DNA of 64,000 nt from Acidobacteriota bacterium (GCA_030949985.1 JAUZRX010000024.1:2526-66525), one strand, 5' to 3'; numbered from the stretch's first letter, positions 16,671 through 45,123 are shown. A program made the numbers and translations. Notes: a model not told the origin generated them from the letters alone.

Positions 16671-16684
16671 GCCTTCTGACCTCG

Positions 16685-22931: not shown

Positions 22932-22965
22932 CCTGCCGGCCCGGAAGTCGAGGGGAACGACGTTT

Positions 22966-23454
22966 TCAGACTCCCGGGAGAGCTTCGAGCAGGACCACCA
23001 CCCGCGTCCCGTCGCCGTTTCCGCCGGCCTCCACCGAAGCCCAGGCGAGGGTCCCACGGATCTGGCCGATGGCCTGCTCCTCGCTGGGGTGTCTGCTGAG
23101 ATCCTCGAACTCCGGCCGGCCCACGATCGTTCGCAGGGCCTCGAGAGCGGCCGCGACGCTCTCTTCCGCCGGAAGTTGCCCGGCATCCAGCCGATACCAC
23201 GCCACCGACAGCGGGCTTGCGCCGAAGCGACCCTGGTCGAGCAATCTCCAGGATTTCGGCCAGGGCACTTCGGGCGGGGCCTCGGGCGGGGTGGCGAGAG
23301 CTCCGGCGCGTGGCCCGCCTTCCGGGAAGAGGGCTGCGCCCGTCGGGGCGTCCTCCGCTCCGGCCCGCCGGTCAGCGTTGTCGGCAGGGCCGCAACCTGC
23401 GGCCAGGAGCGTCGTCAGCAGAAGCGATGCGAGCCGGGCGCTGCGGAATCCCAT
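22966..23454 (-). CDS. Small lipoprotein (162 aa), unknown function
   Basis: MGFRSARLASLLLTTLLAAGCGPADN: signal peptide plus lipobox LAAGC. Confidence 0.55.
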   Translation of the reverse strand: MGFRSARLASLLLTTLLAAGCGPADNADRRAGAEDAPTGAALFPEGGPRAGALATPPEAPPEVPWPKSWRLLDQGRFGASPLSVAWYRLDAGQLPAEESVAAALEALRTIVGRPEFEDLSRHPSEEQAIGQIRGTLAWASVEAGGNGDGTRVVVLLEALPGV

Positions 23455-23576
23455 GGCCCGAGCATGGCACGAAGCCCCCCGGCTCCGCCATCGCCGGGGC
23501 GGTGTTTCCCGCGCGGCAGGGACCTATATTCGCCGGGAAGGTGTGCGGGACCGCTGAACGGCGGCGCGAGGAGACC

Positions 23577-25022: not shown

Positions 25023-26773
25023 GCGGCCTCGGTGCCATGCCCGGCAGGTTCCGGTGTCCCGCCGTCTGGGTTCTCTTCGTACTCCTGGGAGTGTCGGGGC
25101 CGAGCCAGGCGCTCCGCCTGGGGAACCGCGCTGCTGCGGACAGGAGCGCGGCGCGGCCCCTGCGGGAGGTCGATCTGGTGCGCGTACTCGCCGGCGAGGT
25201 CGAGGCGGGCGCCGCCGCGAGAGCGGCTCTCGAGCGCCTGCCCGCCCGCTGTCGACCGAGTCGGGCCCTGGCGAAGGAGGCCTGCGACGACGATCTCCGC
25301 TGCGCCTGGCTCTACGCCCGGGGCGAGGTGGTCCGTGCCTGGAGCGCTGAGGTGGCGCGGGGGCGGAAAGATGCGGCGGCCTGGCTGCACCGTGCGGCGG
25401 ACCGCCTGGCCGCCGGCGGGGCCTGCGGGCGCGGGGCGGCGCGCCGGGGAGCGTGGGAAGCCGATCGCCGCCAGGCGGCCGTGGATGATGGACGGGTTCA
25501 GCTGGCTCGGTTGCTGGAAGTGCGCCGACGGACCCACGCCGCCCTGCTGGCGGGAAGCGTCGCGCGCAGGGTGGAAGCGCTGGTGGCGGCGGCTCGTACG
25601 CAGGGTCTCGGGGCCGTCGATCCTCAGGCCCTCGCCGCCTTGCGCGGCGAGATCTTCACTGCCGCCCAGCGTGGCACGTGGTTGCTGGCCCACCCGGGGC
25701 TGGATCGGTTCCGCAAGATCCTGCAGGGGCTGTGGCAGCCCGCGGGGGGCATGCCCCAGGGCTGCGGAGACGAACTTTTCCGGCCCGATCTGCTGGACGA
25801 CCAGTGGCGCGGCTACCTGGTGCGTGAGGTCGTCCCCAGGGCCCTGTCCTGCCTGTCCGACGGTCTGCCCCGGGCCCTGGCCGGCAAGGGGCTGGCGCCC
25901 GCGGATCCCGTCGCGGGGAAGGATGTGGCCCGGGCTCTCGAGGCTCTCGCCCGGCGGGATTCCGGCGGACGCCATTTCTCGAGGGATCCTGCTCTCGGAG
26001 CCCGAATGGAGGCACTGGAAAGGGCGTTTCGCGCCGGGCGGCAGGTGGCCTCGAGGCCCGTCGCCGCGACTTCCTCTCCCGAGGCGGCCAGGCGGCCGGT
26101 GCCGGCACCTCCCCCCCGTCGGTCGCCCCGATCCTCGGGAGGCCGGGCTCCGCGGAAAGTCGCGCCCGCTCCCGCGAAGGTCGCCTCCCGCAGCGATCCC
26201 CTGCTGGTGAGGCGGGCGGAGAAGGTCCAGCGATTCCTGGAGACTCGGGAAGAACTGGTCGCCGCCGCCCGGGCGGCGAGGGACTCCCGTGCCCGCCGGC
26301 GTCTCGTCCAGCGGCTGGTGGTCGCCCTGCACCGCGGGGTGTGCGCCCCCCTCGAGAAGCTGGATCCCGTCGAACTCGCCGCCGCTCGGCGGGTCTTGCT
26401 CGACCTGGGATACCAGGCCGACGAGGCCGCCTGCAGCGCCAGGGAGGGGGAGGCCTACCTCGACCAGTTGCTGGAAGCGGCGGAAAATCTCCAGCGGCTA
26501 CGGACGGTGGCGCTGATGCGCCGGGCGGCACGGGAGATCGCCGATCGCAGCCCCAGCCTGGCGCTGGTCACCCTCGATCATGTGCCCAAGCGCTTCCAGG
26601 GGAGTTCGTGGACCCTCCTGCGGGCCTGGGCGGCCCGGGAGGAGGGTGATCACGTGACGGCCGACCGGCTGCTCTCGCGCATGGACGAGGAAACCCTCGA
26701 TCGTCTGCGCGCCAGCGGACAGGAAGAACTGGCGCGGGTGGTGGCCCACGCCTGGGTCGCGCGCTCGCCCTGA
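25019..26773 (+). CDS. Secreted/periplasmic Cys-containing helical protein (584 aa), unknown function
   Basis: ATG overlaps upstream stop (ATGA); GGAGGAG RBS; signal peptide MSGLGAMPGRFRCPAVWVLFVLLGVSGPSQA; no recognisable domain. Confidence 0.55.
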   Translation: MSGLGAMPGRFRCPAVWVLFVLLGVSGPSQALRLGNRAAADRSAARPLREVDLVRVLAGEVEAGAAARAALERLPARCRPSRALAKEACDDDLRCAWLYARGEVVRAWSAEVARGRKDAAAWLHRAADRLAAGGACGRGAARRGAWEADRRQAAVDDGRVQLARLLEVRRRTHAALLAGSVARRVEALVAAARTQGLGAVDPQALAALRGEIFTAAQRGTWLLAHPGLDRFRKILQGLWQPAGGMPQGCGDELFRPDLLDDQWRGYLVREVVPRALSCLSDGLPRALAGKGLAPADPVAGKDVARALEALARRDSGGRHFSRDPALGARMEALERAFRAGRQVASRPVAATSSPEAARRPVPAPPPRRSPRSSGGRAPRKVAPAPAKVASRSDPLLVRRAEKVQRFLETREELVAAARAARDSRARRRLVQRLVVALHRGVCAPLEKLDPVELAAARRVLLDLGYQADEAACSAREGEAYLDQLLEAAENLQRLRTVALMRRAAREIADRSPSLALVTLDHVPKRFQGSSWTLLRAWAAREEGDHVTADRLLSRMDEETLDRLRASGQEELARVVAHAWVARSP

Positions 26774-26803
26774 AGCCGACACGGCTCGAGGGCCGGCCGC
26801 CGG

Positions 26804-27358
26804 TCAGGTCGTTTCTTTCTTCACGGGAGCAAGAGTGACGGAAAGATCCCGTCCCATCATCTGGCGGGAACGGTCCTCGGGAATGCCGTGCTCCTGGACC
26901 GCTTCCACCACGCGGTCGAGCACCATCTCTCCCATTTCGGGGCGGCGCATTTCACGCTTGCGGTACATCACGGTGACGCGCACCTTGTGCCCCTGGTCGA
27001 GAAACTTGATCACTTTCCGTGTCTTGGTTTCGAAGTCGTGTTCATCGATGGCAGGCCGGTACTTGATCTGCTTGACCTCGACCTGGTGCTGCTTTTTCTT
27101 GGCGGCCTGAGCCTTCTTCTGCTGCTCGTAGTTGTACCGCCCGTAGTCCATGATGCGGCAGACGATGGGTCGGGCATCGGCGGCGACTTCGACGAGATCC
27201 AGGCCCTTGGACTGGGCGATGGAGAGGGCTTCTTCGACCGGGACGACGCCCACCTGCTGGCCCTCTTCATCGATCAGCCGGACGGGGCTGATGCGGATCA
27301 TGCGATTGATACGGACCTTGGGTGGGCCCTGACGTTCTACGATTCCTGGTCTTCTCAT
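26804..27358 (-). CDS. infC: Translation initiation factor IF-3
   Basis: VRINRMIRISPVRLIDEEGQQVGVV...PIVCRIMDYGRYNYEQQKKAQAAKKKQ...TVMYRKREMRRPEMG aligns to IF3 N and C domains; exact start (AUG vs non-canonical) uncertain. Confidence 0.9.
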   Translation of the reverse strand: MRRPGIVERQGPPKVRINRMIRISPVRLIDEEGQQVGVVPVEEALSIAQSKGLDLVEVAADARPIVCRIMDYGRYNYEQQKKAQAAKKKQHQVEVKQIKYRPAIDEHDFETKTRKVIKFLDQGHKVRVTVMYRKREMRRPEMGEMVLDRVVEAVQEHGIPEDRSRQMMGRDLSVTLAPVKKETT

Positions 27359-27536
27359 CCGGTGGCTTGCGTCCTCCTTGGCGCCCTGGGCGGGCGCTGG
27401 TTCAATTTTTGCGCCGGGCCTTCGCCATGTCCGGCCAGACGCCCCATCGTATCATCATCTCCGGCCTGCGCCGGTACTTTGCGGAGAATCTCGGTCCTCG
27501 GCGGCCCGGGAGCAAGGGGGCTCGGGTAGGAGAAAA

Positions 27537-28634
27537 ATGAGCGAAGCCAGGCGGTTGCTTTCCTTTGGCGCCGGGCCGGCCCTGTGGCCCGACCCGGTTC
27601 TCGAAGAGGCCTCCGGCGGTCTGCTGCCCGGCGCCGGCGGGGGGCTGTCCGTTCTCGAGTGGAGCCATCGGGGCGGGGCCTACGGCCAACTCCACGAAAG
27701 GGCTCTCGAGCGGCTGCGCCGCCTGTTGGGGGTCGGGCCGTCCCACGAGGTGCTCCTGCTTCCGGGAGGAGCGACCCTGCAGTTCGCCATGGTGCCCGCC
27801 AACCTCCGCCCACCCGGGAGAAGCGCCGACTACCTGGTCACCGGCCACTGGGCCCGCCGGGCCGCCCGCTACGCGGCCCTGACGGGGGCCGTCAACGTGG
27901 TGGCCAGTTCCGAGAGTGAAGGCTTTGCCCGGATTCCTCCCCCCGGACAATGGGCTCTCGATCCCCGGGCGGCCTACTTCCACATCACGACCAACAACAC
28001 GATCGCCGGCACACAGCTCCATGTACTGCCGTCTCCGGGGAAGGTCCCCCTGGTGGCCGATGCCAGCTCCGATATTCTGCTGCGGGAACTGCCGGTGACG
28101 AACTTCGACCTGCTCTACGCCGGGGCCCAGAAGAATCTCGGGCCGGCGGGCCTGGCGGTGGTGGTGATTCGCCGCGCCCTGCTGGAGGCGGCGGAGGGCA
28201 TGCCCGAGGGTGTTCTCGGCTACCGGGATCATGCGCAAAGCGGCTCTCGACTCAATACCCCGCCCACGGCGCTGGTTTTCCTGCTGGAGAAGATGCTGGC
28301 TTGGATCGAGGCCGAGGGGGGGAGGTCCGAGATGATCCGGCGCGCCCGGGAACGGGCCGCCTTGATCTATGGGGCTCTCGACCGCCATCCGGAGGTCTAC
28401 CAGCCCTCCGCGCGGCACGAGGACCGCTCGGTGGTGAACGTGGTCTTCCGCCTGCGCTCGAAGGATCGGGAAGAGGCCTTCATCGAGGCTGCGGCCAGGG
28501 AAGGCATGGTGGGGCTGGCGGGACATCGCACGGTGGGGGGGCTGAGGGCCTCGCTCTACGCGGCCATGCCGGTGGACGGCGCTCGCCGCCTGGCGGCCCT
28601 GATCGATGCATTCGCCGACCGGGAGAGGCGTTGA
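27537..28634 (+). CDS. serC: Phosphoserine aminotransferase
   Basis: LLSFGAGPA...HITTNNTIAGTQ...DLLYAGAQKNLGPAGLAVVVIRR (PLP-lysine) typical SerC; GGTAGGAG RBS; internal ATG of track ORF 27378. Confidence 0.9.
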   Translation: MSEARRLLSFGAGPALWPDPVLEEASGGLLPGAGGGLSVLEWSHRGGAYGQLHERALERLRRLLGVGPSHEVLLLPGGATLQFAMVPANLRPPGRSADYLVTGHWARRAARYAALTGAVNVVASSESEGFARIPPPGQWALDPRAAYFHITTNNTIAGTQLHVLPSPGKVPLVADASSDILLRELPVTNFDLLYAGAQKNLGPAGLAVVVIRRALLEAAEGMPEGVLGYRDHAQSGSRLNTPPTALVFLLEKMLAWIEAEGGRSEMIRRARERAALIYGALDRHPEVYQPSARHEDRSVVNVVFRLRSKDREEAFIEAAAREGMVGLAGHRTVGGLRASLYAAMPVDGARRLAALIDAFADRERR

Positions 28635-28656: not shown

Positions 28657-30180
28657 TCAGTCGCCGAAGTGGATTCCCTGGGCCAGGGGCAGATCGGGGG
28701 AGTAGTTGAGCGTACAGGTCTGGCGACGCATGTAGGCTTTCCAGGAGTCGGATCCGGATTCGCGTCCGCCGCCGGTCTCCTTCTCGCCACCGAAAGCGCC
28801 GCCGATCTCGGCGCCGGAGGTGCCGGTGTTCACGTTGGCCAGCCCGCAGTCGCTGCCGGTGGCCGATGTGAACGTCTCCGCGGCGAGGAAGTTCGTGGTG
28901 AAGATCGCCGAGGAGAGGCCCTGGGGAACTTCGTTGTTGACCGCGATCGCGTCGTCGATGTCGTCCACTTCGATCAGGTAGAGGATCGGGGCGAAGGTCT
29001 CCTCGTGGACGATGGGCAGGTCATGGGCCGCGCGGACGATGGTCGGCTCGACGAAGAAGCCCGGCCGCTCGAGGGCCTTGCCGCCGCAGAGGATTTCGCC
29101 CCCCTGCTCGCGCACCTTGTCCAGGGCGTCGAGCATGTCCTGGACCGCCCGCTGGTTGACCAGGGGGCCCATCAGGGTCGCCGGGTCCAGGGGATCGCCG
29201 ATGCGCACCTGCCCGTAGGCTGCCAGCAGGCGTTCGGTCAGGTCGCTGGCGATCCCCCGTTGCATCAGCACGCGCCGGGTGGACGTGCAGCGCTGACCGG
29301 CGGTGCCCACCGCTCCGAAGAGGATCGAGCGGGTCGCCATGCCCAGGTCGGCGTCATCGAGCACGGTGATGGCGTTGTTGCCTCCCAACTCGAGGATCGT
29401 CCGTCCGAGACGGGCGCCGACCACCTCGCCCACATGGCGACCCATGGGAGTCGAGCCGGTTGCGGAGATCAGCGGAACACGCTCGTCGCGGATCAGGGTC
29501 TCGCCCACGGTCCGTCCCGGCCCGATGACCAGGTTGAACAGGCCCCAGGCGTCGTGGCGCTCCATCACCTCGTCGCAGATCTTCTGTACGGCCAGGGCGC
29601 ACAGAGGCGTTTCGGAGGAGGGCTTCCAGACCATCGTGTCGCCGCAGACCGCCGCCAGTGCCGCGTTCCAGGCCCAGACCGCCACCGGAAAGTTGAAGGC
29701 GGAAACGATGCCTACCACCCCGAGGGGATGCCAGCGCTCGATCAGGTGATGCCCCGGCCGTTCGCTGGCGATGGTCAGCCCGTAGAGCTGGCGGCTGAGG
29801 CCCACGGCGAAGTCGCAGATGTCGATCATCTCCTGCACTTCACCTTCGCCCTCGGCGAGGATCTTGCCCATCTCCAGGCTGACCAGGGCGCCGAGTTCGC
29901 TCTTTTTCGCCCGCAGGGCGTTACCCAGGTCGCGGATCACCTCGCCCCGGGCGGGGCCCGGGCGCCGCCGCCAGCCGTCGAAGGCCTGGTGGGCGGCGCC
30001 GATCAGGGCGGTGGTCTGTTCGGCGCCGGCGCAACGCACCCGGCCGAGCACCTCGCCGGTGGCGGGATTGAGGGACTCGAGGACGTCACCGGTGGCGCGC
30101 TGTTCGCCGGCGAGGCCTCCGAGGCCGTCGAGAACATCTCCGGAAAGACCCAGAGACTCGAGAATCTGACGCGGGTCCAT
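28657..30180 (-). CDS. Aldehyde dehydrogenase, ALDH7 / piperideine-6-carboxylate (alpha-aminoadipic semialdehyde) dehydrogenase family
   Basis: WKPSSETPLCALAV, ELGGNNA, catalytic Cys QRCTSTRR, EETFAPILYL; GGGAGG RBS before MDPRQ. Confidence 0.85.
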   Translation of the reverse strand: MDPRQILESLGLSGDVLDGLGGLAGEQRATGDVLESLNPATGEVLGRVRCAGAEQTTALIGAAHQAFDGWRRRPGPARGEVIRDLGNALRAKKSELGALVSLEMGKILAEGEGEVQEMIDICDFAVGLSRQLYGLTIASERPGHHLIERWHPLGVVGIVSAFNFPVAVWAWNAALAAVCGDTMVWKPSSETPLCALAVQKICDEVMERHDAWGLFNLVIGPGRTVGETLIRDERVPLISATGSTPMGRHVGEVVGARLGRTILELGGNNAITVLDDADLGMATRSILFGAVGTAGQRCTSTRRVLMQRGIASDLTERLLAAYGQVRIGDPLDPATLMGPLVNQRAVQDMLDALDKVREQGGEILCGGKALERPGFFVEPTIVRAAHDLPIVHEETFAPILYLIEVDDIDDAIAVNNEVPQGLSSAIFTTNFLAAETFTSATGSDCGLANVNTGTSGAEIGGAFGGEKETGGGRESGSDSWKAYMRRQTCTLNYSPDLPLAQGIHFGD

Positions 30181-30278
30181 GTGATTTCCTCCCAAGGGTG
30201 GAGGAGGATTCTATACTTGGCGGAGAGCCGCGCCACGATGCCCCGGGTTCCTCTCGGCCGGGAGCGAGGAGAGCAGGA

Positions 30279-30989
30279 ATGAAATCCGCCCGCCGCCGGG
30301 CCTGGACACACGCTGGGGCCCTTGCCGCACTCGTCTTCCTGTCGATCAGCCTGGTCGGGTCGGGGGGCTGCGCCGGTGGTCCTCCACCGGTCTTCGATCG
30401 TCCCCCCGCCATCGGTGGGCACCTGCTGCTGCTCGCTCCGCAGCTCCGGCTCGGGGGGGCTCGCCTGGAGGTGGCGGCCGAAGACCTGGGCGAGCTGCTG
30501 GACAAGCTGCTGAGGGAGGGGTTCAGCGGCCGGGGGGTGTCCCTGGCCCGGGAAGAGCCGGCGATTGTCGACGCCTTGCGGCAGAGGCTGACGGCCGCCT
30601 GGGCCCAGCACAGGGGCTCGTCGTCACGGCGCTGGCGCCGGGGGGCGATTCTCGACCTGGGGGAGGCGTCTCGGGCCCGGGGCGCTGCCAGCGTCGCTTT
30701 CGCGGTGCTTTCCGTCTCGGGGGAGTCTTCAGACCGGGGGCTGCCCCTGCCCCCCGACGAGATGATTCCTCTACCCGACGAGCGTGCCGACTACGAGTTG
30801 CTGCGCCCGGGGAGCGCGGGCTCGGCCACGACCCTCGAGCTGGACCTGATCCTGGTGGACCTGCCCACCGGGGTTTTGCGCCTGCATCGACGGGTGGCCT
30901 ACCCGCTGATGCGTCCCGGCCAATGGGTGGACGCCCTCGAAACCCTGGTTCGGGAAGCCACCCGCGGCCTCCAGCCCCGGCACTCCTGA
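30279..30989 (+). CDS. Lipoprotein, unknown function
   Basis: MKSARRRAWTHAGALAALVFLSISLVGSGGCAGG signal plus lipobox; GGAGAGCAGGA RBS. Confidence 0.5.
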   Translation: MKSARRRAWTHAGALAALVFLSISLVGSGGCAGGPPPVFDRPPAIGGHLLLLAPQLRLGGARLEVAAEDLGELLDKLLREGFSGRGVSLAREEPAIVDALRQRLTAAWAQHRGSSSRRWRRGAILDLGEASRARGAASVAFAVLSVSGESSDRGLPLPPDEMIPLPDERADYELLRPGSAGSATTLELDLILVDLPTGVLRLHRRVAYPLMRPGQWVDALETLVREATRGLQPRHS

Positions 30990-31015
30990 CGCGCCCTCCG
31001 ACCGGGTGCGCGGAC

Positions 31016-31040
31016 CGGCCCCGTCAGTGGCCCGGGGCCG
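31016..31040. terminator. 8-bp perfect GC hairpin (CCGGCCCCG...CGGGGCCG) between convergent genes
   Basis: Seen in sequence between the lipoprotein stop (30989) and the radical SAM gene stop (31084). Confidence 0.35.
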
Positions 31041-31083
31041 CCGGGGGATCTTTGCCCGCGGCCGGCGGTGGGGAAGCCTCTAC

Positions 31084-32208
31084 CTATGAATGGCTCGATG
31101 AGGATCGACCGCTGTCGCCGGACGCCCAGAGACCGGGAATCGGGGTCCCGCAAGTCGGGCAGGCGCCCTCGACGAGGTGTCGGCGGAGAACCGTCAGGCC
31201 GTGGCGTTCGATCAGCAGCGTTTCGCAGGCAGGGCAGACGGTGGATTCGGCTCCCGTCCTCCCGGGCAGGTTGCCCGTATAGACGTAGCGCAGCCCCGCC
31301 CTGCGGCCCGCATCGACGGCTCGCAGGAGGTGACTGGGGCTGGTCGCTCCCCGGTCGGTCATCCTGTAATCGGGGTGAAAGGCCGTGACATGCCAGGGGA
31401 TGTCGGGCGAGATGGCGACGAGGAACTCGGCGATCTTTCCGAGTTCCCCGGAGCTGTCGTTGAGGCCCGGAACCACCAGGGTGACGACCTCGAGCCAGAG
31501 CCCGATGTCGTGCACCCTCCGGATCGTTTCGAGCACGTTGTCCAGTACGGCGCCCAGGCGCCGGTAAACCCGGTCCTGGAAGGACTTCAGGTCGATCTTG
31601 ACCATGTCCAGGCGGGGCGCGAGGAACTCGAGCGCTTCCGCCGTTCCGTTACCGTTGCTGACCATGCCGGTCAACATCCCCCTCTCGCGGCAGAGGTCGA
31701 AGACGTCCGCCGCCCACTCCGCGGAGATCAGGGGCTCGTTGTAGGTGCTGACCACCGCCGCGCAGCCGTGGCGCGAGGCCATCGAGGCGATCTGGTCGGG
31801 GGCCATGGGAACGATCTTTGCGGGATCGCTGGATTCCCGGGGGGCCTGGGAGGTGATCCAGTTCTGGCAGTAGCCGCAGTGCATGTCGCAGCCGAGCAGG
31901 CCGAAGGAGAGGGCCCGTGATCCGGGCCGGACGTGGAAAAACGGCTTCTTCTCGATCGGATCCGCCGCCAGGCCTCCCGCCACCCAGCCCCACGGCACCT
32001 GCAGCGCGCCGCGGTCGTTGAAGCGGATGCGGCAGATGCCCGCGCGACCGGGGCGGATCAGGCAGCGATGGGCGCAGGCCACGCAGTGCAGGGCTCCCGG
32101 CTCCGCGGCGGGCCTGCGCAGCTCGTCGCGCCGCCGGGTGTGAGCGCGCAATGCCGTTTCCAGTGAAAGGCCGGAGGAACCGGTTTCCATGGGCGCCCTC
32201 CGTAGCAC
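31084..32208 (-). CDS. Radical SAM enzyme, AmmeMemoRadiSam-system type
   Basis: N-terminal Cys cluster HCVACAHRCLIRPGRAGICRIR, radical SAM GCDMHCGYCQNW (CxxxCxxC); 14 nt downstream of spoVR on the same strand. Confidence 0.7.
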   Translation of the reverse strand: MLRRAPMETGSSGLSLETALRAHTRRRDELRRPAAEPGALHCVACAHRCLIRPGRAGICRIRFNDRGALQVPWGWVAGGLAADPIEKKPFFHVRPGSRALSFGLLGCDMHCGYCQNWITSQAPRESSDPAKIVPMAPDQIASMASRHGCAAVVSTYNEPLISAEWAADVFDLCRERGMLTGMVSNGNGTAEALEFLAPRLDMVKIDLKSFQDRVYRRLGAVLDNVLETIRRVHDIGLWLEVVTLVVPGLNDSSGELGKIAEFLVAISPDIPWHVTAFHPDYRMTDRGATSPSHLLRAVDAGRRAGLRYVYTGNLPGRTGAESTVCPACETLLIERHGLTVLRRHLVEGACPTCGTPIPGLWASGDSGRSSSSHS

Positions 32209-32222
32209 CCCCCGGTCCCATT

Positions 32223-33725
32223 CTACTCCGAGTCGACGCTGGCGACGGCCTTGATTTCCTCTTCGCTGTGTCGGTCGCCGTCGTAGCCCAGGCGGCGGGG
32301 CTTACGGGATACGATGGTCTCCAGGTAGACCGGTCGGCGCCAGATGCGGGCGATCGACGCCAGCACTTCCTGCGCCCAGTCCAGACGCAGTTCGACACCC
32401 TCGTGGTGATGGACCAGGAGCAGTTCCGCCCGATTGCGGTAGTTGCCGTCCACGATCTCGATGATCGGCGTGCCGGCATTGGTCAACTGGAAGAGCAGGG
32501 CCCGCTTGACCTTCTCGAATTCGCGGGAGGCCAGCACCCAGGCCTCCTGGCGGGGGTCCCGTGCGAAGGTGAAGAGCTTGTGCTGGTGGCAGAATTCCGG
32601 GGTCAGAAACTCATCGATGAAGCTCAGGTCGGAGTGGACCTTGCGCACCTCGAAGATCTTTTCCCGCCCCAGGCCGGTCTCCCGTTTCCAGTTGGCCCGT
32701 TCCGCCATGTCGTCGCAACTGCGCCATTCGGGGCCGAATCGTCCCGTATTCCAGCGGAACTCGATGTCCCGGAAGAGCTCGAGGCCCAGCTTGTAGGGGT
32801 TGAGTCGGCCCGGCTGCACGGCTGTGGTTCCCGAGTGGTGATCGGCGAAGTCGATGATTTCGGTGTCGTCGAGCAGGTGCCGGGTCAGGATCGTCGTGTG
32901 CCAGTAACTGGCCCAGCCCTCGTTCATGATCTTGGTCTGGCGCTGGGGCAGGAAGTAGTAGGACTCCTTTCGGATGATGTCCAGCACGTCCTGCTCCCAG
33001 TTCTCCAGCGGCGCATGCTTGAGCAGAAAGCCGAGGATGTCCCGCTGGGGGCGTGCGGGGAAACCGCGACGCTGTTCACGCTCGCGTTCCAGCGCGGCAC
33101 GCTTGCGCTCGATGTACTCCGGCGGGTTGATGAAGGCGTCCATGTAATCCTTGGCCTTCAGGCGCTTGACTTCGATGGGCGCTTCGGAGACGTCTTCGAT
33201 CCGACCCAGGCCGTACTGCTGCTCGAAAGCCGCGTGGGGGTCGATCAGGTCTTCGATGGCCAGGCAGTCATCGAGGAAGCGTTCGATCTTGTCGATTCCG
33301 TGCTGATCGCGGTAACGCCGTACGCGTGTGGCGTGGTTGGCCATCGCGTCGATCATCCGGCGATTGGTGTTGGAGAAGAAGACGTTGTGTTTGAAAAAAT
33401 CGGCGTGGCCGTAGACATGGGCCATGACCAGCTTGTGATCGAGAAAGGAGTTGCCCTCGAGCAGGTAGGCGTAGGTCGGATCGTTGTTGATCACCATCTC
33501 GTAGATCTTGTGCAGGCCGTACTCGTAGGATTTATCGAGTTGCTGGAACTCCATGCCCCAGCGCCAGTGCGGGTAGCGGATGGGAAATCCCGTATAGGCT
33601 GCGAGCTGGTTCATCTGCGCATAGTCGACCATCTCGAAGATGACGGGGAAAGTGTCGAGTCCGTAGCGGGTGGCGACGGCTTCGACTTCCATTTGCAGTT
33701 CGGCGAGTTCCCGCGGCAGCGTCAT
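32223..33725 (-). CDS. spoVR: SpoVR/YcgB family protein
   Basis: 500 aa; [47 protein letters not shown] typical SpoVR; third gene of prkA operon. Confidence 0.9.
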
Positions 33726-33728
33726 CGC

Positions 33729-34838
33729 TCATCTCCCCGTCGAAAGAAACGAACGAATGGCTTCGGGAATGCCTTCCTTGCCCTCGATCACCGTGAGCAC
33801 CACGCGCTCGTCTTCACCGAAGGGTTTTTCGAGATCGTGCAGGTACTGGCCCGATCCGTAGGGGCTTTCCACCTGGCCGTAGGCGAAGAGGTTGAGTTCC
33901 GGGAGAAGGTCCTCCGCCAGCAGTTTGACGCAGGACTCGGTGTCTCCCTGGGACCAGTTGTCGCCGTCGGAGAACTGGAAGAGATAGAGGTTCCACTCCT
34001 CGGGAGGAAAGCGGTCCTGGATGATTTTCTGCACGAGGTGGTAGGAGCTGGAGATCACCGTGCCGCCGCTCTCCCGGGTGCTGAAGAAGGTGTCCCGGTC
34101 GACTTCCCGGGCCTGGGCGTCATGGATGACGAAGACTGTTTCCAGGCCGCGGTACTGGCTGCTCAACCAGGTGTCGATCCAGAACGAAGCGATGCGGACG
34201 ATTTCTTTCTGCTCGTCTCCCATCGATCCGGAGACGTCCATCACGTAGATGATCACCGCGTTGGCCTGGGGCTGGGGATGGGTCTGAAAGGTCCGGTAGC
34301 GTTTGTCTTCGCGGATCGGGATGATGATCGGATTCTTCGGATCATAGACCCCGGCGGCGATCTGCCGTTGCAGCGCCCGCCTGAAGGTGCGCTTGAAATG
34401 CCTGAGGGACTCCGGTCCCGCGTGGGAGATCCCGGTGTAACGTCCCGAGTGGGTTTCGATGTTCTTCTTGCCCCGGGGTTGGATTCGAGGCAGCTCGAGT
34501 TCTTCGCCCAGCAGTTCCGCGAGTTCCTCGATGGTCAGATCGACCTCGAGGATGTGTTCGCCGGGCAGATTGCCGGCCTTGCCCCGGCCGTCACCCTGCT
34601 GGCCGGCAGGTCCCAGAATGCTGCCTTCCTCGCCTTCTCCCTGTCCGACGTGCTGTTGACCGCCGGGGGAGTGGACGAAGCGTGGGGTTTGAATCCGCGG
34701 CAGGGGAATGGAAACGATGTTCTTTCCCTTGCGTCCGAGCATCTCGCCGCGCGACATGAAGCGCCGCAGCTCGTCGCGGACCTTGCCGCGGACGATTTCG
34801 CGGAAGCGTCCGACATCGGTGTCGATCTTGAGGGCCAC
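33729..34838 (-). CDS. yhbH: YeaH/YhbH family protein (DUF444, VWA-like)
   Basis: 369 aa; Gly/Gln-rich linker then [20 protein letters not shown] (MIDAS-like) typical DUF444. Confidence 0.9.
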
Positions 34839-34853
34839 GTTCTGTCCCGCCCG

Positions 34854-36908
34854 TCAGTCCGTGTCCTTGGCATCGCCCCGGGCAAAAATGCTCGCGACGA
34901 AATGCAGCACGTCGGTGGCGCTTTCGTCGTTGTAGCCGTAGTCCTTGATCAGGCGCGCCTTGACCACGTCGATCTTCTCCTGGGTTTCCTTGTCGACGAT
35001 GGAGGTCACCAGGGAAGTCAGCTTGATCGTGTCCTTCTGGTCCTCGAAAAGCTTGAGTTCGAGAGCCTTGTGCAGTCGTTCGTTGGAGCGGTAGTCGAAC
35101 TTCTTCTCGTCCACTGCAAGGGCGCCGATGTAATTCATGATCTCCCGCCGGAAGTCGTCTTTCCGGTTGTCGGGGATGTCGATCTTTTCCTCGATCGAGC
35201 GCATCAGCCGTTCATCGGGTGGCTCGTCCTGGCCGGTGTAGGGGTTGCGGACCTTTTCCCGCTGGGTATAGGCCTTGACATTGTCCAGGTAGTTGGCGCA
35301 GAGCCGGGAGATCGCCGCCTCGTCGGCGGCGATGGCCCGCTGCACCTCGTTCTTGACGATGTCTTCGTACTCCTTGCGCACCTCGGCGAGCAGTTCGCGG
35401 TAGCGCGCGCGATCCTCCTCGTTGCTGATCAGCGAGTGGTGGCGCAGTCCCGCTTCGAGTTCGCGGAGGACCATGAAGGGGTTGATATGGTTGGCGGTGT
35501 CGTCCACCAGCGCGTTGGAGATCTTGTCCTGGATATAGCGCGGCGAGATGCCGTCGAGCCCTTCGCGGGCCGCACTCTTGCGCAGTTCCTTGACGTTGTC
35601 TTCGGTGTAGCCCGGAAGGGTCTTGCCGTTGTAGAGCTTGAGCTTCTGCATCAGCGTCAGGTTGTGCTTCTTGGGCTCTTCCAGCCGCGTCAGCACGGCC
35701 CACATGGCGGCCATCTCGACCGTGTGCGGGGCGATGTGCTTGCCGATGCGCTCGTTGTTGAAGTCTTTCGCGTAGATCTTGATCTCTTCGCTGAGCTTGG
35801 TGATGTAGGGAATGTCGACCTTCACCGTCCGGTCCCGCAGGGCCTCCATGTATTCGTTGTTCAGCAGCTTGCGGTACTCGGGTTCGTTGGTGTGGCCGAT
35901 GATCACCTCGTCGATGTCGGTCTGGGGGAACTTTTTCGGCTTGATCTTGTGCTCCTGGGAGGCGCCGAGCAGGTCGTAGAGGAAGGCGACGTCCAGCTTG
36001 AGGACCTCGACGAACTCGATCAGGCCGCGGTTGGCGATGTTGAATTCGCCGTCGAAGTTGAAAGCGCGGGGATCGGAGTCGGAGCCGTATTGGGCGATCT
36101 TGCGGTAGTTGATGTCGCCGGTCAGTTCGGTGGAGTCCTGGTTCTTCTCATCCTTCGGCTGGAAGGTGCCGATGCCGACGCGGTCCTTTTCGGAGAGAAT
36201 CAGCCGTCGGACTCGAATGTGGGCCAGCACTTGGGCCAGGTCGCCCTCGAAGCGCTGCATCAGCTCGCTGAATTGCTGGCGGCAGAAGGGACAGAGATCG
36301 CGCTCGATGCGTACCTGGTAGTCGGAGCCCGAGGCGTTGAGTTGTTCGACGACCGCCGGGCGAGTGGATTCCGGCAACAGGTGCAGCGGCTCCTCGTGCA
36401 TCGGGCACCAATCGACCGGCGCGCCGGGGTCGTCGGGCTTGGCGGTCCAGCCGAAGGTGTAGAGCATGCCCTCCTGGGAGCGGGAGTAGGCTTCGAGCCC
36501 CTTCTTGAGCAGCCGGACGATGGTGCTCTTGGCCGAGCCTACCGGACCATGGAGCAGGATCACGCGTTTTTCGGTGCCATAGCGCCGGGCGGCGGACTTG
36601 AAGATGTTCATCAACTTCATCAGCGAAATGTCGAGCCCGAAGACACCGTCGATGCCGCCGCCGAGAGGGTCGTCGAAGAAGTGGTAGTGAGTCATCCGCT
36701 TCTTGTTGTCGATGTACTCGGAAGTACCGTAGGACATGATCATGTCGTAGAGGCGCTCGTGGGCGCTGCGCGTGATGCGGGGTTGCTCGCGCACCATGCC
36801 GAGGTAGTCGGTGAAGGATCCGGTCCAGTGCTGCTTTTTGAACTGCTCCCGGTTCTGTGCGCTGGTGATCGCCTCTAGAATGCTCTTGCCGGTGTCTGTG
36901 GTGGCCAT
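34854..36908 (-). CDS. prkA: PrkA/YeaG-family serine protein kinase (AAA+ N-domain)
   Basis: Walker [14 protein letters not shown], 684 aa; start MATTD (track ORF extends 14 codons further). Confidence 0.95.
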
Positions 36909-37002
36909 GGTCTGGGCTCCTGTGGCTCGGATTCTCCGGCGGGGCCGCACCGGTCTCGCGGGAGTCCGCGCTGCTGCGGCAGCTTCACTTCGAAGATAGC
37001 TT

Positions 37003-38175
37003 TTGGGAGAAACCGGGGCAATGCAAAAGAGTTACGACACGGGGGCCGCGCTCCGCGGGGAAGGCGCGGTGCTGGTGCTGGAGGGGGCGCTGCATCCTCC
37101 GGGCGTGGCCCTGGTTCGCCGGGGCGAGGTTGTCGCCGCGGTGGATGTCAGCCGGGAGAAAGGCCCCAGCGGGGGGCTCGGAGCGGCCGCGGCGGCCATG
37201 CTGGTGCGGCCGGAGGCCCGGCGGCTCTCGGCCGTGGTGGTGGATTGCGGGCCGGGATCGTTCACCGGGCTGCGGGTGGCCTTGAGCTTTGCGCAGGGAT
37301 TGATCGCCGGGATCCCGGGGCTGGCGGGCTTGGGGGTCGATGCGCCCCGGGTGCTGACTTTCGGCGCCGGGCTGGGCTTTCCGGCACTCGTGGCCATTCC
37401 CTGGGGGCGTCTTCGCGTCTTGCTCGCCGAGGCGGGGATAGACGGCAGGCTGCGGGGCGAGGTGATCGCCCGGGAGGCTCTCTCCGGCCGGGGAGCGATC
37501 GCCGGCCGGGACGTGGCCACCACCGCCGCCGGGGCGTCGCTCGATTTCCCGGCCGGTGTGCAAGCCCATCCGCTGAGCGTGTCTCCGGTGGCCGTGCTGG
37601 CGGAGATGGTCGCCGGAGGCTGTGTGCCCGCCTCCGCCTGGCGGCCCCTGGAGCCGGTCTACCTGGTGCCACCCGATGCCGTGCTGCCGGCTCCCGCCCG
37701 GGTCGCGTCGTCCCCGGCGGCGGTGACGATCTTCGGTCCCTCTCGGCTCGCGGCCCTCGAGGCCTTGCTCGCGGCAGCCTTTGAGCGTCCCTGGAGTCGG
37801 GCCATGGTGCAGGAGGAACTGGCCGATCGGGACGATCGACGGGTCCTGGGGTGGCTCGACCGGGACGGGTGCGTCGGTGCGGCCATCTTCTTGCGCCGGA
37901 CGGGGGACAACCTCGAGATCCTCAACCTGGCGGTGCATCCTGATTATCGTCGGCGGGGCCTGGGGCGTCTTCTCGTGCAGGAGGCGATCGGGCGCGCGCG
38001 GCAGGAGGGGCTGCGGCAGGTGGACCTGGAAGTCTCCGAGGCGAACGTGGCAGCCGTGCGGCTCTACGAGACGGAGGGTTTCGTTCCGGTCGGGAGCCGG
38101 CCGCGCTACTACCCCGACGGCAGCGCCGCACTGCTGATGAGCCTGGTGCTCAGACGGGCTTCGGAGCCGGGATGA
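37003..38175 (+). CDS. tsaB: TsaB (tRNA t6A biosynthesis, YeaZ) fused to RimI GNAT acetyltransferase
   Basis: N-terminal ~220 aa: [33 protein letters not shown] (TsaB). C-terminal ~150 aa: [51 protein letters not shown] (RimI). Confidence 0.8.
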
Positions 38176-38267
38176 AAGCGGCTTTTCCAGCGGTGGGCCC
38201 GGTCGGGGCGGATCTGCCCAGCTGCCGGGCGCTGTGGTAGCCTGCGGAACCGGAGGAAGACTGCCAG

Positions 38268-38939
38268 ATGACCATGTTTGCACCCGCGGACTCGGGGAGG
38301 GCTTCACCGCGCCGCATCCCCATCGCCCGGGAGGGATGGCCTTTCGTCTTGACCCCGCTGGTGGCGGCCGGGTTCGCCCTGCTGGCGGGGTGGGTCTGGG
38401 CGGCCGTGGGATGCGGTCTGCTTGCGGCGGCTTGCGCGGCTTTCTTTCGCGACCCCGATCGCCGCGTCCCGACGGACCCGGCCCTGGTGCTCGCTCCCGC
38501 TGACGGGAAGGTCACCCGGGTCGAGAGGGCGGCCGACGGTCGACTGAAGATCTCGATTTTTCTCAGTGTCTTCGATGTTCACATCAACCGCTGCCCGGTG
38601 GCCGGCAAGGTGCGACGGGTGCGCTACCTGCCGGGGCGCTACCTGGCGGCCAACTTCGAGGCCTCTTCCGCGGAGAACGAGCGCAACGAGGTATGGCTCG
38701 AGACCGAGCGGGGAGAGGTGCGGGTGACCCAGATCGCCGGGGTGATCGCGCGCCGCATTGTCTGCCGGGTGCAGCCGGGGGACGAACTCGCCTCGGGCGC
38801 TCGCTTCGGGTTGATTCGTTTCGGGTCGCGGACTGATCTCGATCTGCCTCCCGAGGCCATGCCCCGCGTGCGACCGGGTGACCGGACGCGGGGCGGCCTG
38901 ACCACGGTGGCCGTGTGGGCCGGCGGGGACGTCGCGTGA
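38268..38939 (+). CDS. psd: Phosphatidylserine decarboxylase proenzyme (short type)
   Basis: FFRDPDR, ADGKV, VHINRCPVAGKV, self-cleavage-site motif FGSR. Confidence 0.85.
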   Translation: MTMFAPADSGRASPRRIPIAREGWPFVLTPLVAAGFALLAGWVWAAVGCGLLAAACAAFFRDPDRRVPTDPALVLAPADGKVTRVERAADGRLKISIFLSVFDVHINRCPVAGKVRRVRYLPGRYLAANFEASSAENERNEVWLETERGEVRVTQIAGVIARRIVCRVQPGDELASGARFGLIRFGSRTDLDLPPEAMPRVRPGDRTRGGLTTVAVWAGGDVA

Positions 38940-39718
38940 GCCTCGCGCCCCCGAAACGGCCGATTCGCGGCCGCTTGCGTGGTGTGGCCGGCTATCTGCC
39001 CGGCGCTCTGACCCTGGGCAACGTGTTGGCGGGATACCTGGCGATCCTGCTGGCTTCCCAGGGACGGCTGCTGACCGCGGCGATCCTGATCTTTGCCGCC
39101 GCCGTGCTGGACGGCCTCGACGGCCGAGTGGCTCGCTTGACGGGGACCACCAGCGACTTCGGCGAAGAACTCGATTCCCTGGCGGATGCGGTCTCCTTTG
39201 CGGTGGCGCCGTCGATCATCGCCTTCCACTTCGCCCTGGCGGATCTGGGCCGGGTGGGGTGGGGGGCCTGTTTCCTCTACGCTGCTTGCGGCGTGATCCG
39301 CCTGGCGCGTTTCAACGCGGCGGCGGGTGAGCACAAGGACTTCATCGGCGTACCCAGTCCCACCGCGGCGGCCGCGGTGGCCTGTCCCGCCCTGTTCACC
39401 GGTGGAGAGACGCTCGCATCCTTCCTCGTGCCGGGCTACCTGTTGCTGGTCGTCGTCATCGGCTTGCTGATGATCTCGCCGGTGCGCTACTTCTCCCCCA
39501 AGAATCTGCGTTTCGGCCCGCGGCCCTACCGGGCCCTGGCTCTCTGGGCGGCGATTCTCGCCGGGTTGATCATGCGTTACGAGTGGGTCGTGCCCGGGCT
39601 GATCCTTCTCTACCTGCTTTCGCCCCTCTTCCGGCCGTGGTTCGGTCGGCGTCGCAAGCGCGCCTCGGTCCCGCGATCCTCCGCGCCGTCCTCCTCTTCC
39701 AGGGACAAAGCCGAATGA
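38936..39718 (+). CDS. pssA: CDP-diacylglycerol--serine O-phosphatidyltransferase (CDP-alcohol PT family)
   Basis: DGLDGRVARLTGTTSDFGEELDSLAD = D-G-x2-A-R...G-x3-D-x3-D motif; GTG overlaps psd stop (GTGA). Confidence 0.85.
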   Translation: MSLAPPKRPIRGRLRGVAGYLPGALTLGNVLAGYLAILLASQGRLLTAAILIFAAAVLDGLDGRVARLTGTTSDFGEELDSLADAVSFAVAPSIIAFHFALADLGRVGWGACFLYAACGVIRLARFNAAAGEHKDFIGVPSPTAAAAVACPALFTGGETLASFLVPGYLLLVVVIGLLMISPVRYFSPKNLRFGPRPYRALALWAAILAGLIMRYEWVVPGLILLYLLSPLFRPWFGRRRKRASVPRSSAPSSSSRDKAE

Positions 39719-39800
39719 AATTCCGGCCGGGGTCGCGTGGTCTTGCCCCTGCGGTGGCGCTGAAGCTAGGATGCCCCTCCTCGCCTCAAGGGAGTCGTCG

Positions 39801-40616
39801 ATGAGAGCCTTGGATTCGTTTTCCCTCGATCAGTGGGAGCCCCGCCCCTGGCTCCGTCGACTCCTGCCCGTTCTGTTGGCTGTCCTGGTGCCGGTGCTTG
39901 CGGGTCATGCCCAGGTGGATGACGGTCTGGATCTCGACAATCCCTTCGACCGGGAGAAGGGCGCCGCTGTGGTCCATGCCCTCGAAGAGCGCTCCCGGAT
40001 CCTGGGCCGGCTGCTCGTGGACTTCTCGCGGGAGTATCGCCGGGTGGCCGTCGAGCGGGCAGCGGTGGCCCGGGAGTTGATCGAAACCCAGGCGGAGATG
40101 GATCGTCAGGTGATTCGGGTGCGGGACCTGACCTTCGAGCAGCTCGAGGCTCTGCGCGACCAGATCGTCGAGGTCCGCCAGCGCTACGACAAGCTGGAAG
40201 TCGACTCGCGGCGCCTGCTCGACGGCCTGCGCCTGCTCTTGCTCGAGCGTGACGCCCTGGACCAGCGCATCGCGGAGATCCGTGCCGAGACGCCGGGCTT
40301 CGAAGAGATCCTGTCCGGCGTCTGGGAGGTCACCTGGCTTCCGGCGGGGACCACGGGCACTTTCTATCTCGACCAGTCGGGCACTCTCGTCACGGGGCAG
40401 TACCGGCTGGGCGCCAGGCGCTCCGGTTCTCTGCGAGGGACCTTCGTGGGCAACAAGATCCAGCTCGAACGGGTCGATGCGGAACGTGGCCGCGATGCGG
40501 AACTCGAGGGTTTCCTCGACGAGGAAGGCGGCGTGATCCGCGGCACCTGGCAGTCCTTCGAAATGGTTCAGGGGGGGCTGCCCCACGGACAGTGGGTCGC
40601 CCGAAGGGTCCGGTGA
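39801..40616 (+). CDS. Secreted coiled-coil protein, unknown function
   Basis: Signal peptide MRALDSF...LLPVLLAVLVPVLAGHAQ; GGGAG RBS; stop overlaps lolE start. Confidence 0.5.
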   Translation: MRALDSFSLDQWEPRPWLRRLLPVLLAVLVPVLAGHAQVDDGLDLDNPFDREKGAAVVHALEERSRILGRLLVDFSREYRRVAVERAAVARELIETQAEMDRQVIRVRDLTFEQLEALRDQIVEVRQRYDKLEVDSRRLLDGLRLLLLERDALDQRIAEIRAETPGFEEILSGVWEVTWLPAGTTGTFYLDQSGTLVTGQYRLGARRSGSLRGTFVGNKIQLERVDAERGRDAELEGFLDEEGGVIRGTWQSFEMVQGGLPHGQWVARRVR

Positions 40617-41890
40617 GCGTGGCCGCTTCGGCCGCCCGCGCCGCCAGGACGCGATCCGTCTATGCGCCCTTCGTGGCCGGGCGTTTCCTGCGTACGCGTC
40701 GCCAGGGCTTCGTCTCGCTGATCGGGCTGCTGTCGGCACTGGGTTTCATGGTCGGGGTGGCCTCCCTGATCGTGGCCCTGGCGCTGATCACCGGTTTTCA
40801 GGAAGCGATGATCAGTCGAATACTGGCGGCCAACGCCCAGCTCCTGGTCTTTCCGGCTCCGGGGAGGGGGGCGATCGAAAATGCCGGGCAGGTGATCACC
40901 GAGCTGAAGGCGGTGCCGGGGGTGGTGGACGCCGCTCCCGTGGTCAGCACCAAGGGGTTGATCATGGCGGCCGGCCGGCGATTGCGGTGGGTGACCATCA
41001 ACGGGATCGATCCCGGGCCGGGTCTGCGCGTGACCGATATGGAGCAGACCATGGTGGAGGGGTCGTTCCACGACCTGGGCAGCGAGGCGGAAGATCTGCG
41101 GCCGCCGCTGATCCTGGGAGAGGAACTGGCGCTGGAACTGGGGGTGCTGCGCGGAGACCCGGTCACGCTCCTGGTGCCACGGCCCAAGCTGACACCGTGG
41201 GGCGTGAGCCTGCGCCAGTCGGTGTTTCGCGTGGCCGGCTTCTTCCGTACCGACTATTTCGAGTACGACTCCGGCTGGGCCTTCATTTCGCTGCACCAGG
41301 CCCAGCGTATCCTGGGCATGGGCGAGGACGTGAGCTGGATCGCGGCGCGGGTGGAAGACCTGGGCCGACTCGAGGAAATCGAAGCGCGGGCCCAGGAGCG
41401 CCTGGGAGAGGGTTTCCGGGTCGACGATATCCTGCGCCACAACCGGGCCCTGTTCTCGGCGATGAAGCTCGAGAAACTGCTGATGTTCTTCGCCGTGGGC
41501 CTGATCGTGCTGGTCGCGGCCCTGGGCGTGATCAGCACGCTGGTTTTGACGGTCATTCAAAAGGTCAGGGAAATCGGCGTCCTGGCAGCGATGGGGGCGA
41601 CTCCCGGGGGCGTTCTGCGAATCTTCATCCTCCAGGGCCTGAGTACGGGGCTGGTGGGAACCCTGGCCGGGGCCGTCTTGGGGGTGGGCGCGTGCTGGGT
41701 GATCGATCGCTTCAAGTTGATTCCCCTGGATCCGGATGTCTACTACCTGTCCTATGTGGCCTTGAGCGTGCGGCCCCAGGATGTGGCGATCGTGGTCTTC
41801 GTGTCTGTGCTCGTTGCCTTGCTTTCGACGCTCTACCCGGCCTGGCGGGCCGCCTCGCTCGATCCGGTGGAGGCCTTGCGCGGTGAGTGA
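40613..41890 (+). CDS. lolE: Lipoprotein-releasing system permease LolC/LolE (FtsX family)
   Basis: 4 TM, large periplasmic loop, C-terminal FtsX; GTG overlaps upstream stop. Confidence 0.85.
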   Translation: MSVAASAARAARTRSVYAPFVAGRFLRTRRQGFVSLIGLLSALGFMVGVASLIVALALITGFQEAMISRILAANAQLLVFPAPGRGAIENAGQVITELKAVPGVVDAAPVVSTKGLIMAAGRRLRWVTINGIDPGPGLRVTDMEQTMVEGSFHDLGSEAEDLRPPLILGEELALELGVLRGDPVTLLVPRPKLTPWGVSLRQSVFRVAGFFRTDYFEYDSGWAFISLHQAQRILGMGEDVSWIAARVEDLGRLEEIEARAQERLGEGFRVDDILRHNRALFSAMKLEKLLMFFAVGLIVLVAALGVISTLVLTVIQKVREIGVLAAMGATPGGVLRIFILQGLSTGLVGTLAGAVLGVGACWVIDRFKLIPLDPDVYYLSYVALSVRPQDVAIVVFVSVLVALLSTLYPAWRAASLDPVEALRGE

Positions 41891-42599
41891 GGTCCTGGTC
41901 GAGGCCCGTGGTCTGTGCAAGGACTATTGCCGCCGCGGGTTGGCCGCACCTCCCGTGAAAGTGTTGCAAGATTTGGATTTCCGCTTGCTTCAAGGCGAGA
42001 CCGTGGCGATTCAGGGCCAGTCGGGGGTCGGCAAGACGACGCTGTTGAACCTGCTCGGCGGTCTCGACCGGCCGGATTCGGGTATTCTCTTGTTCAGACA
42101 GGAGGAGATACCCTCGGATCCTGCGTCCCGCGCCCGGTGGCGCAGGGGGGCCGTGGGGATCATCTTCCAGTTTCATGGGCTGCTTGGTGAGTTTACAGCG
42201 GCGGAGAATGTGGCTCTCGCCGGCCTCATCCGGGGCTGGCGGCGCGCGGACGCGCTCCGGCGGGCCCGGGATCTGCTCGGGCGGCTGGGCCTGGCTGAAC
42301 GGGCCGAGCACCACCCCGATCAGCTCTCCGGGGGCGAGCAGCAGCGGGTGGCCCTGGCCCGGGCCCTGGTCACCGGGCCTCCGCTCCTGCTGGCCGACGA
42401 GCCCACGGGCAATCTCGACCCCCGGACCGGCGATCGCGTCCTCGACACCCTCTTCCAGTTGCAGCAGGAGTTGGGCTTCTCCCTCGTCGTGGCGACCCAC
42501 TCGGAAAGGCTGGCGCGTCGCTGCCACCGTGCCCTACGTTTGGAACGAGGCCGGCTCGTGGAGATCACCACGTTCGCCGGAAGCGAAGAACCCTCCTGA
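41883..42599 (+). CDS. lolD: Lipoprotein-releasing system ATP-binding protein LolD
   Basis: Walker A GQSGVGKTTLL, signature LSGGEQQRVALARAL, Walker B LLLADEPTGNLD; GTG overlaps lolE stop. Confidence 0.9.
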   Translation: MSEVLVEARGLCKDYCRRGLAAPPVKVLQDLDFRLLQGETVAIQGQSGVGKTTLLNLLGGLDRPDSGILLFRQEEIPSDPASRARWRRGAVGIIFQFHGLLGEFTAAENVALAGLIRGWRRADALRRARDLLGRLGLAERAEHHPDQLSGGEQQRVALARALVTGPPLLLADEPTGNLDPRTGDRVLDTLFQLQQELGFSLVVATHSERLARRCHRALRLERGRLVEITTFAGSEEPS

Positions 42600-42638
42600 C
42601 CCCATGGGACGGCTGGCGTCCCGAGACAAGGTGCGGCG

Positions 42639-45086: not shown

Positions 45087-45123
45087 GCGGCCCGCGGAGA
45101 TCCCAACGCGGAGTCGAGCCCGT

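Follow-up and report, generated by a model that had tools for sequence, protein, structure and literature searches.

Introduction

The AmmeMemoRadiSam system owes its name to the co-occurrence, within the same genome, of a radical S-adenosylmethionine (SAM) enzyme with proteins of the AMMECR1 and Memo families. For six bacteria, the PrkA-YhbH-SpoVR trio (YeaG-YeaH-YcgB) has been reported to constitute a closed cofitness module, and in most bacteria it is described as being encoded by one operon (bioRxiv, 10.1101/072470). In the present study, we analyzed a stretch of high-GC DNA (0.61-0.73) from a metagenome-assembled genome (MAG) of an Acidobacteriota bacterium (GCA_030949985.1, JAUZRX010000024.1:2526-66525; at its full length of 64,000 nucleotides (nt) referred to here as the window), in which a complete prkA-yhbH-spoVR operon is closely followed, on the same strand, by a radical SAM gene of the AmmeMemoRadiSam family (hereafter rSAM).

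The literature that mentions AmmeMemoRadiSam was found to consist of incidental annotations, and a search combining AMMECR1, MEMO1 and radical SAM returned no paper. The sole relevant analysis that we found is that of Balaji and Aravind (2007; PMC2034487), who reported that AMMECR1 persistently neighbors a radical SAM enzyme as well as Memo, a protein resembling ring-opening dioxygenases, described Memo-AMMECR1 fusions, and proposed an uncharacterized modification, possibly of an RNA base. Bacillus subtilis PrkA is reported, in the accessible portion of PMC9512850, to be an ATP-dependent protease; a radical SAM partner of the PrkA trio is mentioned neither there nor in 10.1101/072470.

The first-pass annotation of the locus had read the close spacing of the four genes as suggesting that a modification by a radical SAM enzyme is linked to the PrkA pathway. 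We find that the comparative evidence does not support this proposal, and consider it likely that a lineage-specific rearrangement placed an orthodox rSAM gene beside a self-contained prkA-yhbH-spoVR operon.

Results

Linkage of rSAM to the prkA operon in related genomes

Linkage was surveyed from both sides, with 80 loci listed in each survey from pattern-seeded scans. The rSAM-side survey covered one genome per species (GTDB representatives), with rSAM identities of 52-77% to the window protein and at least 1.6 kb of upstream sequence in 72 of the 80 loci. When these loci were searched by tblastn with PrkA, DUF444 and SpoVR, a single locus (L005) was matched, which is the same contig as that of the 77%-identical relative, L002. 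The whole region is collinear between L002 and the window, and the encoded proteins are closely similar (PrkA 96%, SpoVR 91%, IF3 98% and aldehyde dehydrogenase (Aldedh) 93% identical). Being a near relative and fully syntenic, L002 shares the arrangement by ancestry, i.e., through the same event, and lends it no independent support. Among the loci surveyed, the pairing was thus confined to a single narrow group of soil-type bacteria.

The operon-side survey was a metagenome scan with SpoVR, yielding loci at 48-75% identity, most of them with yhbH and prkA upstream. The DUF444-spoVR order was common to most of these loci, the longer ones adding prkA. The operon of the window resembles the described module in its three families, their canonical order and its single strand, and has gaps of 15 and 3 nt. 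Downstream sequence extended for at least 1.2 kb in 56 of the metagenomic loci, at least 3 kb in 42 and 6 kb in 27. No rSAM homologue was found in the 80 loci at E < 1e-5, and only chance fragments appeared at E < 10. In the nearest informative operons, L086 and L087 (SpoVR 70-71%, PrkA 87-92%), spoVR is followed by convergent genes. The window differs from the described operons in having a fourth same-strand gene after 32 nt, an arrangement seen in none of the 56 others with enough downstream sequence. Looking across prkA operons for a fourth radical SAM gene, as the first-pass annotation had proposed, therefore gave 0/80, and recurrence of the four-gene linkage in independent lineages was not observed among the 80 rSAM and 80 spoVR loci.

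Ancestral context of the rSAM gene

The genes around rSAM were then compared with those of its next-closest orthologues, i.e., P0006 (64% identity, L168), P0007 (63%, L169) and P0015 (61%, L165/L166). These orthologues retain the downstream context of the window, but not prkA. Downstream of rSAM in L165/L166 and L168 are one or two small genes followed by genes for Aldedh (74% in L165/L166, at the same position in L168) and IF3 (70% in L165), and upstream are a divergent gene of 571-579 aa and a heme-biosynthesis operon. In L169 (4846-7316), rSAM follows an MFS transporter gene of the same strand after 44 nt and has a convergent gene of 236 aa downstream. In L167 (8781-11071), rSAM is found 29 nt behind a class-III aminotransferase gene, again on the same strand. 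The tight gaps in L167 and L169 indicate that operon-like spacing with unrelated genes recurs for rSAM.

A neighbor-joining tree of 85 rSAM sequences placed the window and L002 as sister to a group in which L169 branches outside L168 and L165. Taken together, synteny and tree indicate that the downstream block is ancestral to rSAM, that its upstream neighbor is variable, and that the prkA operon was acquired as a neighbor in one terminal branch. Base composition agrees only weakly with the prkA operon being the derived neighbor: GC content is 0.61 in prkA, yhbH and spoVR, 0.68 in rSAM and 0.69 in the flanks, and GC at third codon positions is alike across all of these (0.79-0.87), hence recent acquisition from a foreign source is not indicated.

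Transcription signals at the spoVR-rSAM junction

The start of rSAM is taken as ATG 32190, which is conserved with L002 and is also the choice of NCBI; the Shine-Dalgarno sequence GGAGGG ahead of it is conserved as well. The first-pass annotation had given the spoVR-rSAM gap as 14 nt. The tight spacing stands, whereas the value assumes a start at GTG 32208, a codon that is not conserved (GCG in L002); counted from the ATG, the gap is 32 nt in the window and 30 nt in L002.

No terminator-like site was predicted between the two genes, and the junction RNA was no more stably folded than shuffled sequence (z = 0.10). The region 3' of rSAM gave a fold z of 0.43, with a GC-rich hairpin that lacks a U-tract and is non-significant. 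A gathering-threshold Rfam scan of the whole window returned 0 hits, hence no riboswitch or leader was detected ahead of rSAM. The gap, the Shine-Dalgarno sequence and the absence of both a terminator-like site and a significant hairpin are all consistent with read-through, and on these grounds rSAM is probably co-transcribed with the prkA operon from the prkA promoter.

Alternatively, rSAM might be transcribed separately, from a promoter within the 3' end of spoVR, and so not be co-expressed with the prkA operon. This would fit the relatives L165 and L168, in which rSAM has an upstream intergenic region of its own of 150-160 nt and is clearly an independent unit, and also the fact that promoter types of Acidobacteriota lie outside a consensus scan. 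However, such a scan, although uninformative for this phylum, gave no sigma-70-like site in 30000-38500, the window sequence upstream of rSAM shares nothing with the upstream regions of the relatives, and neither a terminator nor a stable hairpin ends the spoVR transcript. We therefore regard a separate promoter as rather unlikely, though it is the strongest of the alternatives. The sigma-54-type pattern TGGC-N8-TGC, equally uninformative for the phylum, had no match upstream of prkA.

rSAM and the Memo and AMMECR1 partners

A further alternative is that, in this lineage, the PrkA-YhbH-SpoVR pathway has gained rSAM as a fourth functional component, which would, e.g., modify one of the three proteins or their target and would work without Memo and AMMECR1. 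The layout of the junction speaks for this, as do its retention in the 77%-identical relative and the lack of either partner gene in the window. With respect to the latter, Pfam scans of 20 otherwise unlabeled open reading frames (ORFs) of the window detected neither family; the other ORFs were assigned by visual inspection of their translations (ribosomal proteins, carB, IF3, BamA, LpxA/D, PNPase, IF2 and others). Hidden Markov models (HMMs) of Memo and AMMECR1 likewise matched nothing at E <= 0.01 when the window was searched in all six translated frames, a result that a very divergent AMMECR1 could escape, the AMMECR1 model having been built from only three sequences. The seeds of both models came from signature-motif finds in related loci and were validated by Pfam (Memo, PF01875 at 1e-50 to 1e-52; AMMECR1, PF01871 at 1e-30 to 6e-49). 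This motif-then-HMM route was used in place of neighbor clustering of the 80 rSAM loci, which was confounded by high-GC shadow ORFs. The absence of Memo and AMMECR1 from the window, remarked on in the first-pass annotation, was thereby borne out.

The same absence is usual among the relatives. Although members of the family often lie beside, or are fused to, Memo or AMMECR1, such an arrangement is not obligatory. Memo was found within ~8 kb of rSAM in 14 of the 80 loci, AMMECR1 in three, and neither in 66, so that the window is like ~80% of its nearest relatives in departing from the linked arrangement. Twelve loci had Memo directly adjacent: ten, mostly verrucomicrobial, with Memo immediately downstream, and two from Acidobacteria MAGs (L046, 6481-8004; L061, 6442-7926) with a fused Memo-AMMECR1 gene of ~495-508 aa directly upstream of rSAM. 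In L033, L063 and L066, the partners lie 5-7 kb from rSAM. Both the gene neighborhood and the fusions described in PMC2034487 were thus found again in L046 and L061, with an rSAM of the same family as that of the window, whereas the window locus lacks the cluster. Memo-linked loci were scattered among unlinked ones in the neighbor-joining tree. With 66 of 80 relatives equally orphaned, the genes of the system are evidently often dispersed; an orphan location is the norm in this branch of the family and does not set the window rSAM apart.

The rSAM protein itself also argues against recruitment. It is 54-59% identical to members linked to Memo or to Memo and AMMECR1, and retains every residue that is invariant in a 20-sequence alignment that includes the Memo/AMMECR1-adjacent enzymes of L041, L046, L061 and L077; its sequence carries no sign of neofunctionalization. 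Together with a linkage found in 1/80 rSAM loci and 0/80 prkA operons, the lone case being syntenic and closely related, and with orthologues that lack the prkA linkage, these findings leave recruitment improbable. Nothing points to an action of rSAM on PrkA, YhbH or SpoVR, or to its working together with them.

Family assignment and structure of rSAM

The assignment of rSAM to the AmmeMemoRadiSam family, made in the first-pass annotation, was confirmed by profile searches. The protein scored 285.3 bits on TIGR04337 (AmmeMemoSam_rS; E = 5.5e-85, cutoff 220, model positions 8-335 of 349) and matched the Radical_SAM domain PF04055 at 2e-19 (70.8 bits). It is exactly P0001, which NCBI names 'MAG: AmmeMemoRadiSam system radical SAM enzyme [Acidobacteriota bacterium]'. 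The cysteine motifs pointed out in the earlier annotation, i.e., the GCxxxCxxCQNW core and an N-terminal cluster, are both present: C101, C105 and C108 form the CX3CX2C motif inside GCDMHCGYCQNW, and the N-terminal cluster reads C36-x2-C39-x3-C43-x9-C53. A C-terminal CxxC...CxxC element is formed by C319, C322, C344 and C347. All 11 of these cysteines are invariant in family alignments of 20 and 30 sequences. In sharing the above-cutoff score, the GCDxHCxYCQNW motif with its CX3CX2C, both accessory cysteine clusters and the same length, rSAM is an orthodox member of the TIGR04337 family; what is different is its upstream neighbor, the prkA operon.

The AlphaFold (AF2) model of rSAM (predicted local distance difference test score, pLDDT, 88) suggests a PflA-like partial-barrel SAM core, to which a Cys4 domain is added at the N-terminus and a CxxC...CxxC ribbon at the C-terminus. 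Foldseek aligned the modeled core with the pyruvate formate-lyase (PFL)-activating enzyme 3C8F (E = 5e-13, target-normalized template-modeling score 0.78, or 0.78-0.80 over the PflA structures 3C8F and 8FO0; 18% identity), and a phmmer search of solved structures returned none closer to rSAM by sequence than the PFL-activating enzymes (E = 1e-8). These likenesses raise the alternative that rSAM is a PflA-like activase of a glycyl radical enzyme that has been mis-assigned to AmmeMemoRadiSam, as might the label 'pyruvate formate lyase activating enzyme' that the Joint Genome Institute (JGI) gives to many homologues. However, although PflA (3C8F, 8FO0) has the closest solved fold, rSAM adds to it a beta-domain of ~85 residues with the N-terminal Cys4 and the C-terminal Cys4 ribbon, both invariant in the family, and no gene for a glycyl radical enzyme was recognized in the window. 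In addition, rSAM fails the PFLA model TIGR02493, which was the next best at 63.4 bits (cutoff 231.75); its scores on the remaining activase models, as well as on the viperin and MoaA models, were far under cutoff. An activase identity was rejected on these scores and is very improbable. Thus, neither of the findings that the first-pass annotation had named as telling against its reading, a different subfamily and a terminator between spoVR and rSAM, was encountered.

Finally, a chimeric contig, conceivable because the source is a MAG and because L001, from another assembly, contains frameshifts, was rejected and has a next to negligible probability, given that the spoVR-rSAM junction was recovered in five separate contigs, i.e., the window and four from other assemblies (L001, L002, L003 and L004; GCA_030949355.1, GCA_027001345.1, ENA ERZ23495147 and Logan SRR10312491). 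In a contig index, an exact look-up of the SpoVR protein gave no match, and that of the ATG-start rSAM (P0001) did match. L001 (GCA_030949355.1) encodes an identical rSAM protein, and its spoVR is split in two ORFs and its 263-aa gene frameshifted relative to the window; these disruptions (1-1447 and 2678-3467) are probably assembly or consensus errors of that MAG.

Organization of the window

The features of the locus are listed in Table 1. The ORFs and families of the operon were confirmed by Pfam and NCBIfam, in agreement with the first-pass description of a complete prkA-yhbH-spoVR operon with rSAM close behind it on the same strand. PrkA matched AAA_PrkA (PF08298) at 9e-92 and the C-terminal domain PF06798 at 7e-88, and AGGAG lies 8 nt ahead of its ATG; YhbH scored 573 bits on NF003711 (cutoff 388). 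On the other side of the presumed promoter region, the fusion gene gave matches to Acetyltransf_1 (9e-21) and, in its N-terminal region, to the TsaD family (1e-5).

Table 1. Genes and intergenic regions at the prkA operon-rSAM locus (window coordinates).
Feature	Coordinates	Strand	Remarks
infC (IF3)	26804-27358	-	IF3_N and IF3_C; at corresponding position in L001, L002, L165 and L168
Class-V aminotransferase	27378-28634	+	PF00266, 5e-32; syntenic in L002
Aldehyde dehydrogenase (Aldedh)	28657-30195	-	PF00171, 9e-133
Small lipoprotein-like gene	30198-30989	+	Convergent to rSAM; 263 aa, signal peptide and Cys
AmmeMemoRadiSam-family radical SAM (rSAM)	31084-32190	-	368 aa; TIGR04337
spoVR-rSAM spacer	32191-32222	-	32 nt; Shine-Dalgarno GGAGGG at 32196-32201; terminator not predicted
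spoVR/ycgB	32223-33725	-	3 nt past yhbH; PF04293, 7e-140; SpoVR_C, 2.5e-9
yhbH/yeaH (DUF444)	33729-34838	-	15 nt past prkA; PF04285, 3e-88
prkA	34854-36908	-	PrkA/YeaG-family AAA+; 684 aa from ATG 36908; mechanical ORF reaches GTG 36950
Intergenic region upstream of prkA	36909-37019	divergent	111 nt; presumed operon promoter region
tsaB-like/GNAT (rimI-like) fusion	37020-38175	+	Divergent; ATG 37020; upstream bound of operon

A small lipoprotein-like gene of 236-263 aa lies convergent to or near rSAM across the acidobacterial clade. The copy in the window has no Pfam match; homologues were found in L002 (6071-6781, 76% identity) and L165/L166 (39%; 12070-12780 in L165), and the 236-aa gene of L169 (7317-8027) is paired with it by position and size only. 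Its conservation beside rSAM may be simple synteny.

On the strand opposite to the operon, a shadow ORF of 1575 aa (32151-36878, +) covers all of prkA, yhbH and spoVR. With gaps of 15 and 3 nt, these genes lie in a common reading frame, and apart from a single CTA close to the start of prkA they are free of TTA, CTA and TCA codons, which leaves the codon-aligned antisense frame without stops.

Elsewhere, 1-12400 and 38268-48249 represent a housekeeping context, and the window opens with a ribosomal-protein gene cluster. The stretch 16000-26800 is the richest in GC (0.68-0.735), with both strands open and ambiguous gene calls; it includes genes for a 1044-aa protein with TPR and Ser/Thr kinase domains (18020-21154, -), a SWIM/DUF6880 protein (21048-22931, +) and an HTH/TPR protein, as well as several large ORFs lacking a Pfam match, among them 23217-25022 and 24551-26773. 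Beyond the fusion gene, an envelope-biogenesis cluster within 38268-48249 comprises psd, a pssA-like gene, and genes for a LolC/E-like FtsX permease and an ABC ATPase, and continues with BamA, Skp, LpxD, FabZ and LpxA (named by eye).

Discussion

All four genes at this locus are standard, already annotated members of known families, three of them making up a stress-signaling operon, and it is their order that calls for an explanation. We favor a lineage-specific rearrangement, and the course of events may have been as follows. In the ancestor of this acidobacterial lineage, rSAM would have stood in a block of rSAM, small gene, Aldedh and IF3. On the branch from which the window organism and its nearest sequenced relative descend, a rearrangement would then have set the prkA operon immediately upstream, and read-through from the prkA promoter into rSAM would be incidental. 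The function of rSAM would most likely be the uncharacterized modification reaction of its family, carried out with Memo and AMMECR1 encoded elsewhere, as seems to hold for most of its relatives.

Several points weigh against this explanation. The spacer of 30-32 nt, the Shine-Dalgarno sequence and the absence of a terminator have all been kept while the two rSAM proteins diverged to 77% identity; the arrangement has thus persisted for a while, and co-expression would follow from it. The pattern-seeded surveys of 80 loci could have missed a rare second lineage with the linkage, and the SpoVR relatives with downstream sequence leave the range of 75%-91% identity unsampled. It is, moreover, an assumption that Memo and AMMECR1 are encoded elsewhere in the genome of the window organism. 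These points leave some small room for the view that, in this lineage, the prkA operon has taken in rSAM, whose expression would rise together with that of PrkA, YhbH and SpoVR upon starvation or stress. This would connect the uncharacterized rSAM chemistry with the similarly obscure PrkA pathway, whether as a lineage-specific functional recruitment or as a clue to a common physiological setting; we nevertheless consider this a distinctly improbable account of the locus, and the lineage-specific rearrangement much the likelier one.

Were the linkage functional, it would open a first experimental way into two systems that are widespread but poorly understood, i.e., the PrkA/YeaG-YeaH-YcgB module and the AmmeMemoRadiSam trio, in which Memo and AMMECR1 have human homologues. 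If, as we think, the two units became neighbors through a lineage-specific accident, their adjacency opens no such way. The lesson is then a more general one: a short same-strand gap in one genome, or in two close genomes that are syntenic, gives weak grounds for assuming functional coupling, and genes of the rSAM family often lie apart from those of their partners and downstream of unrelated ones.

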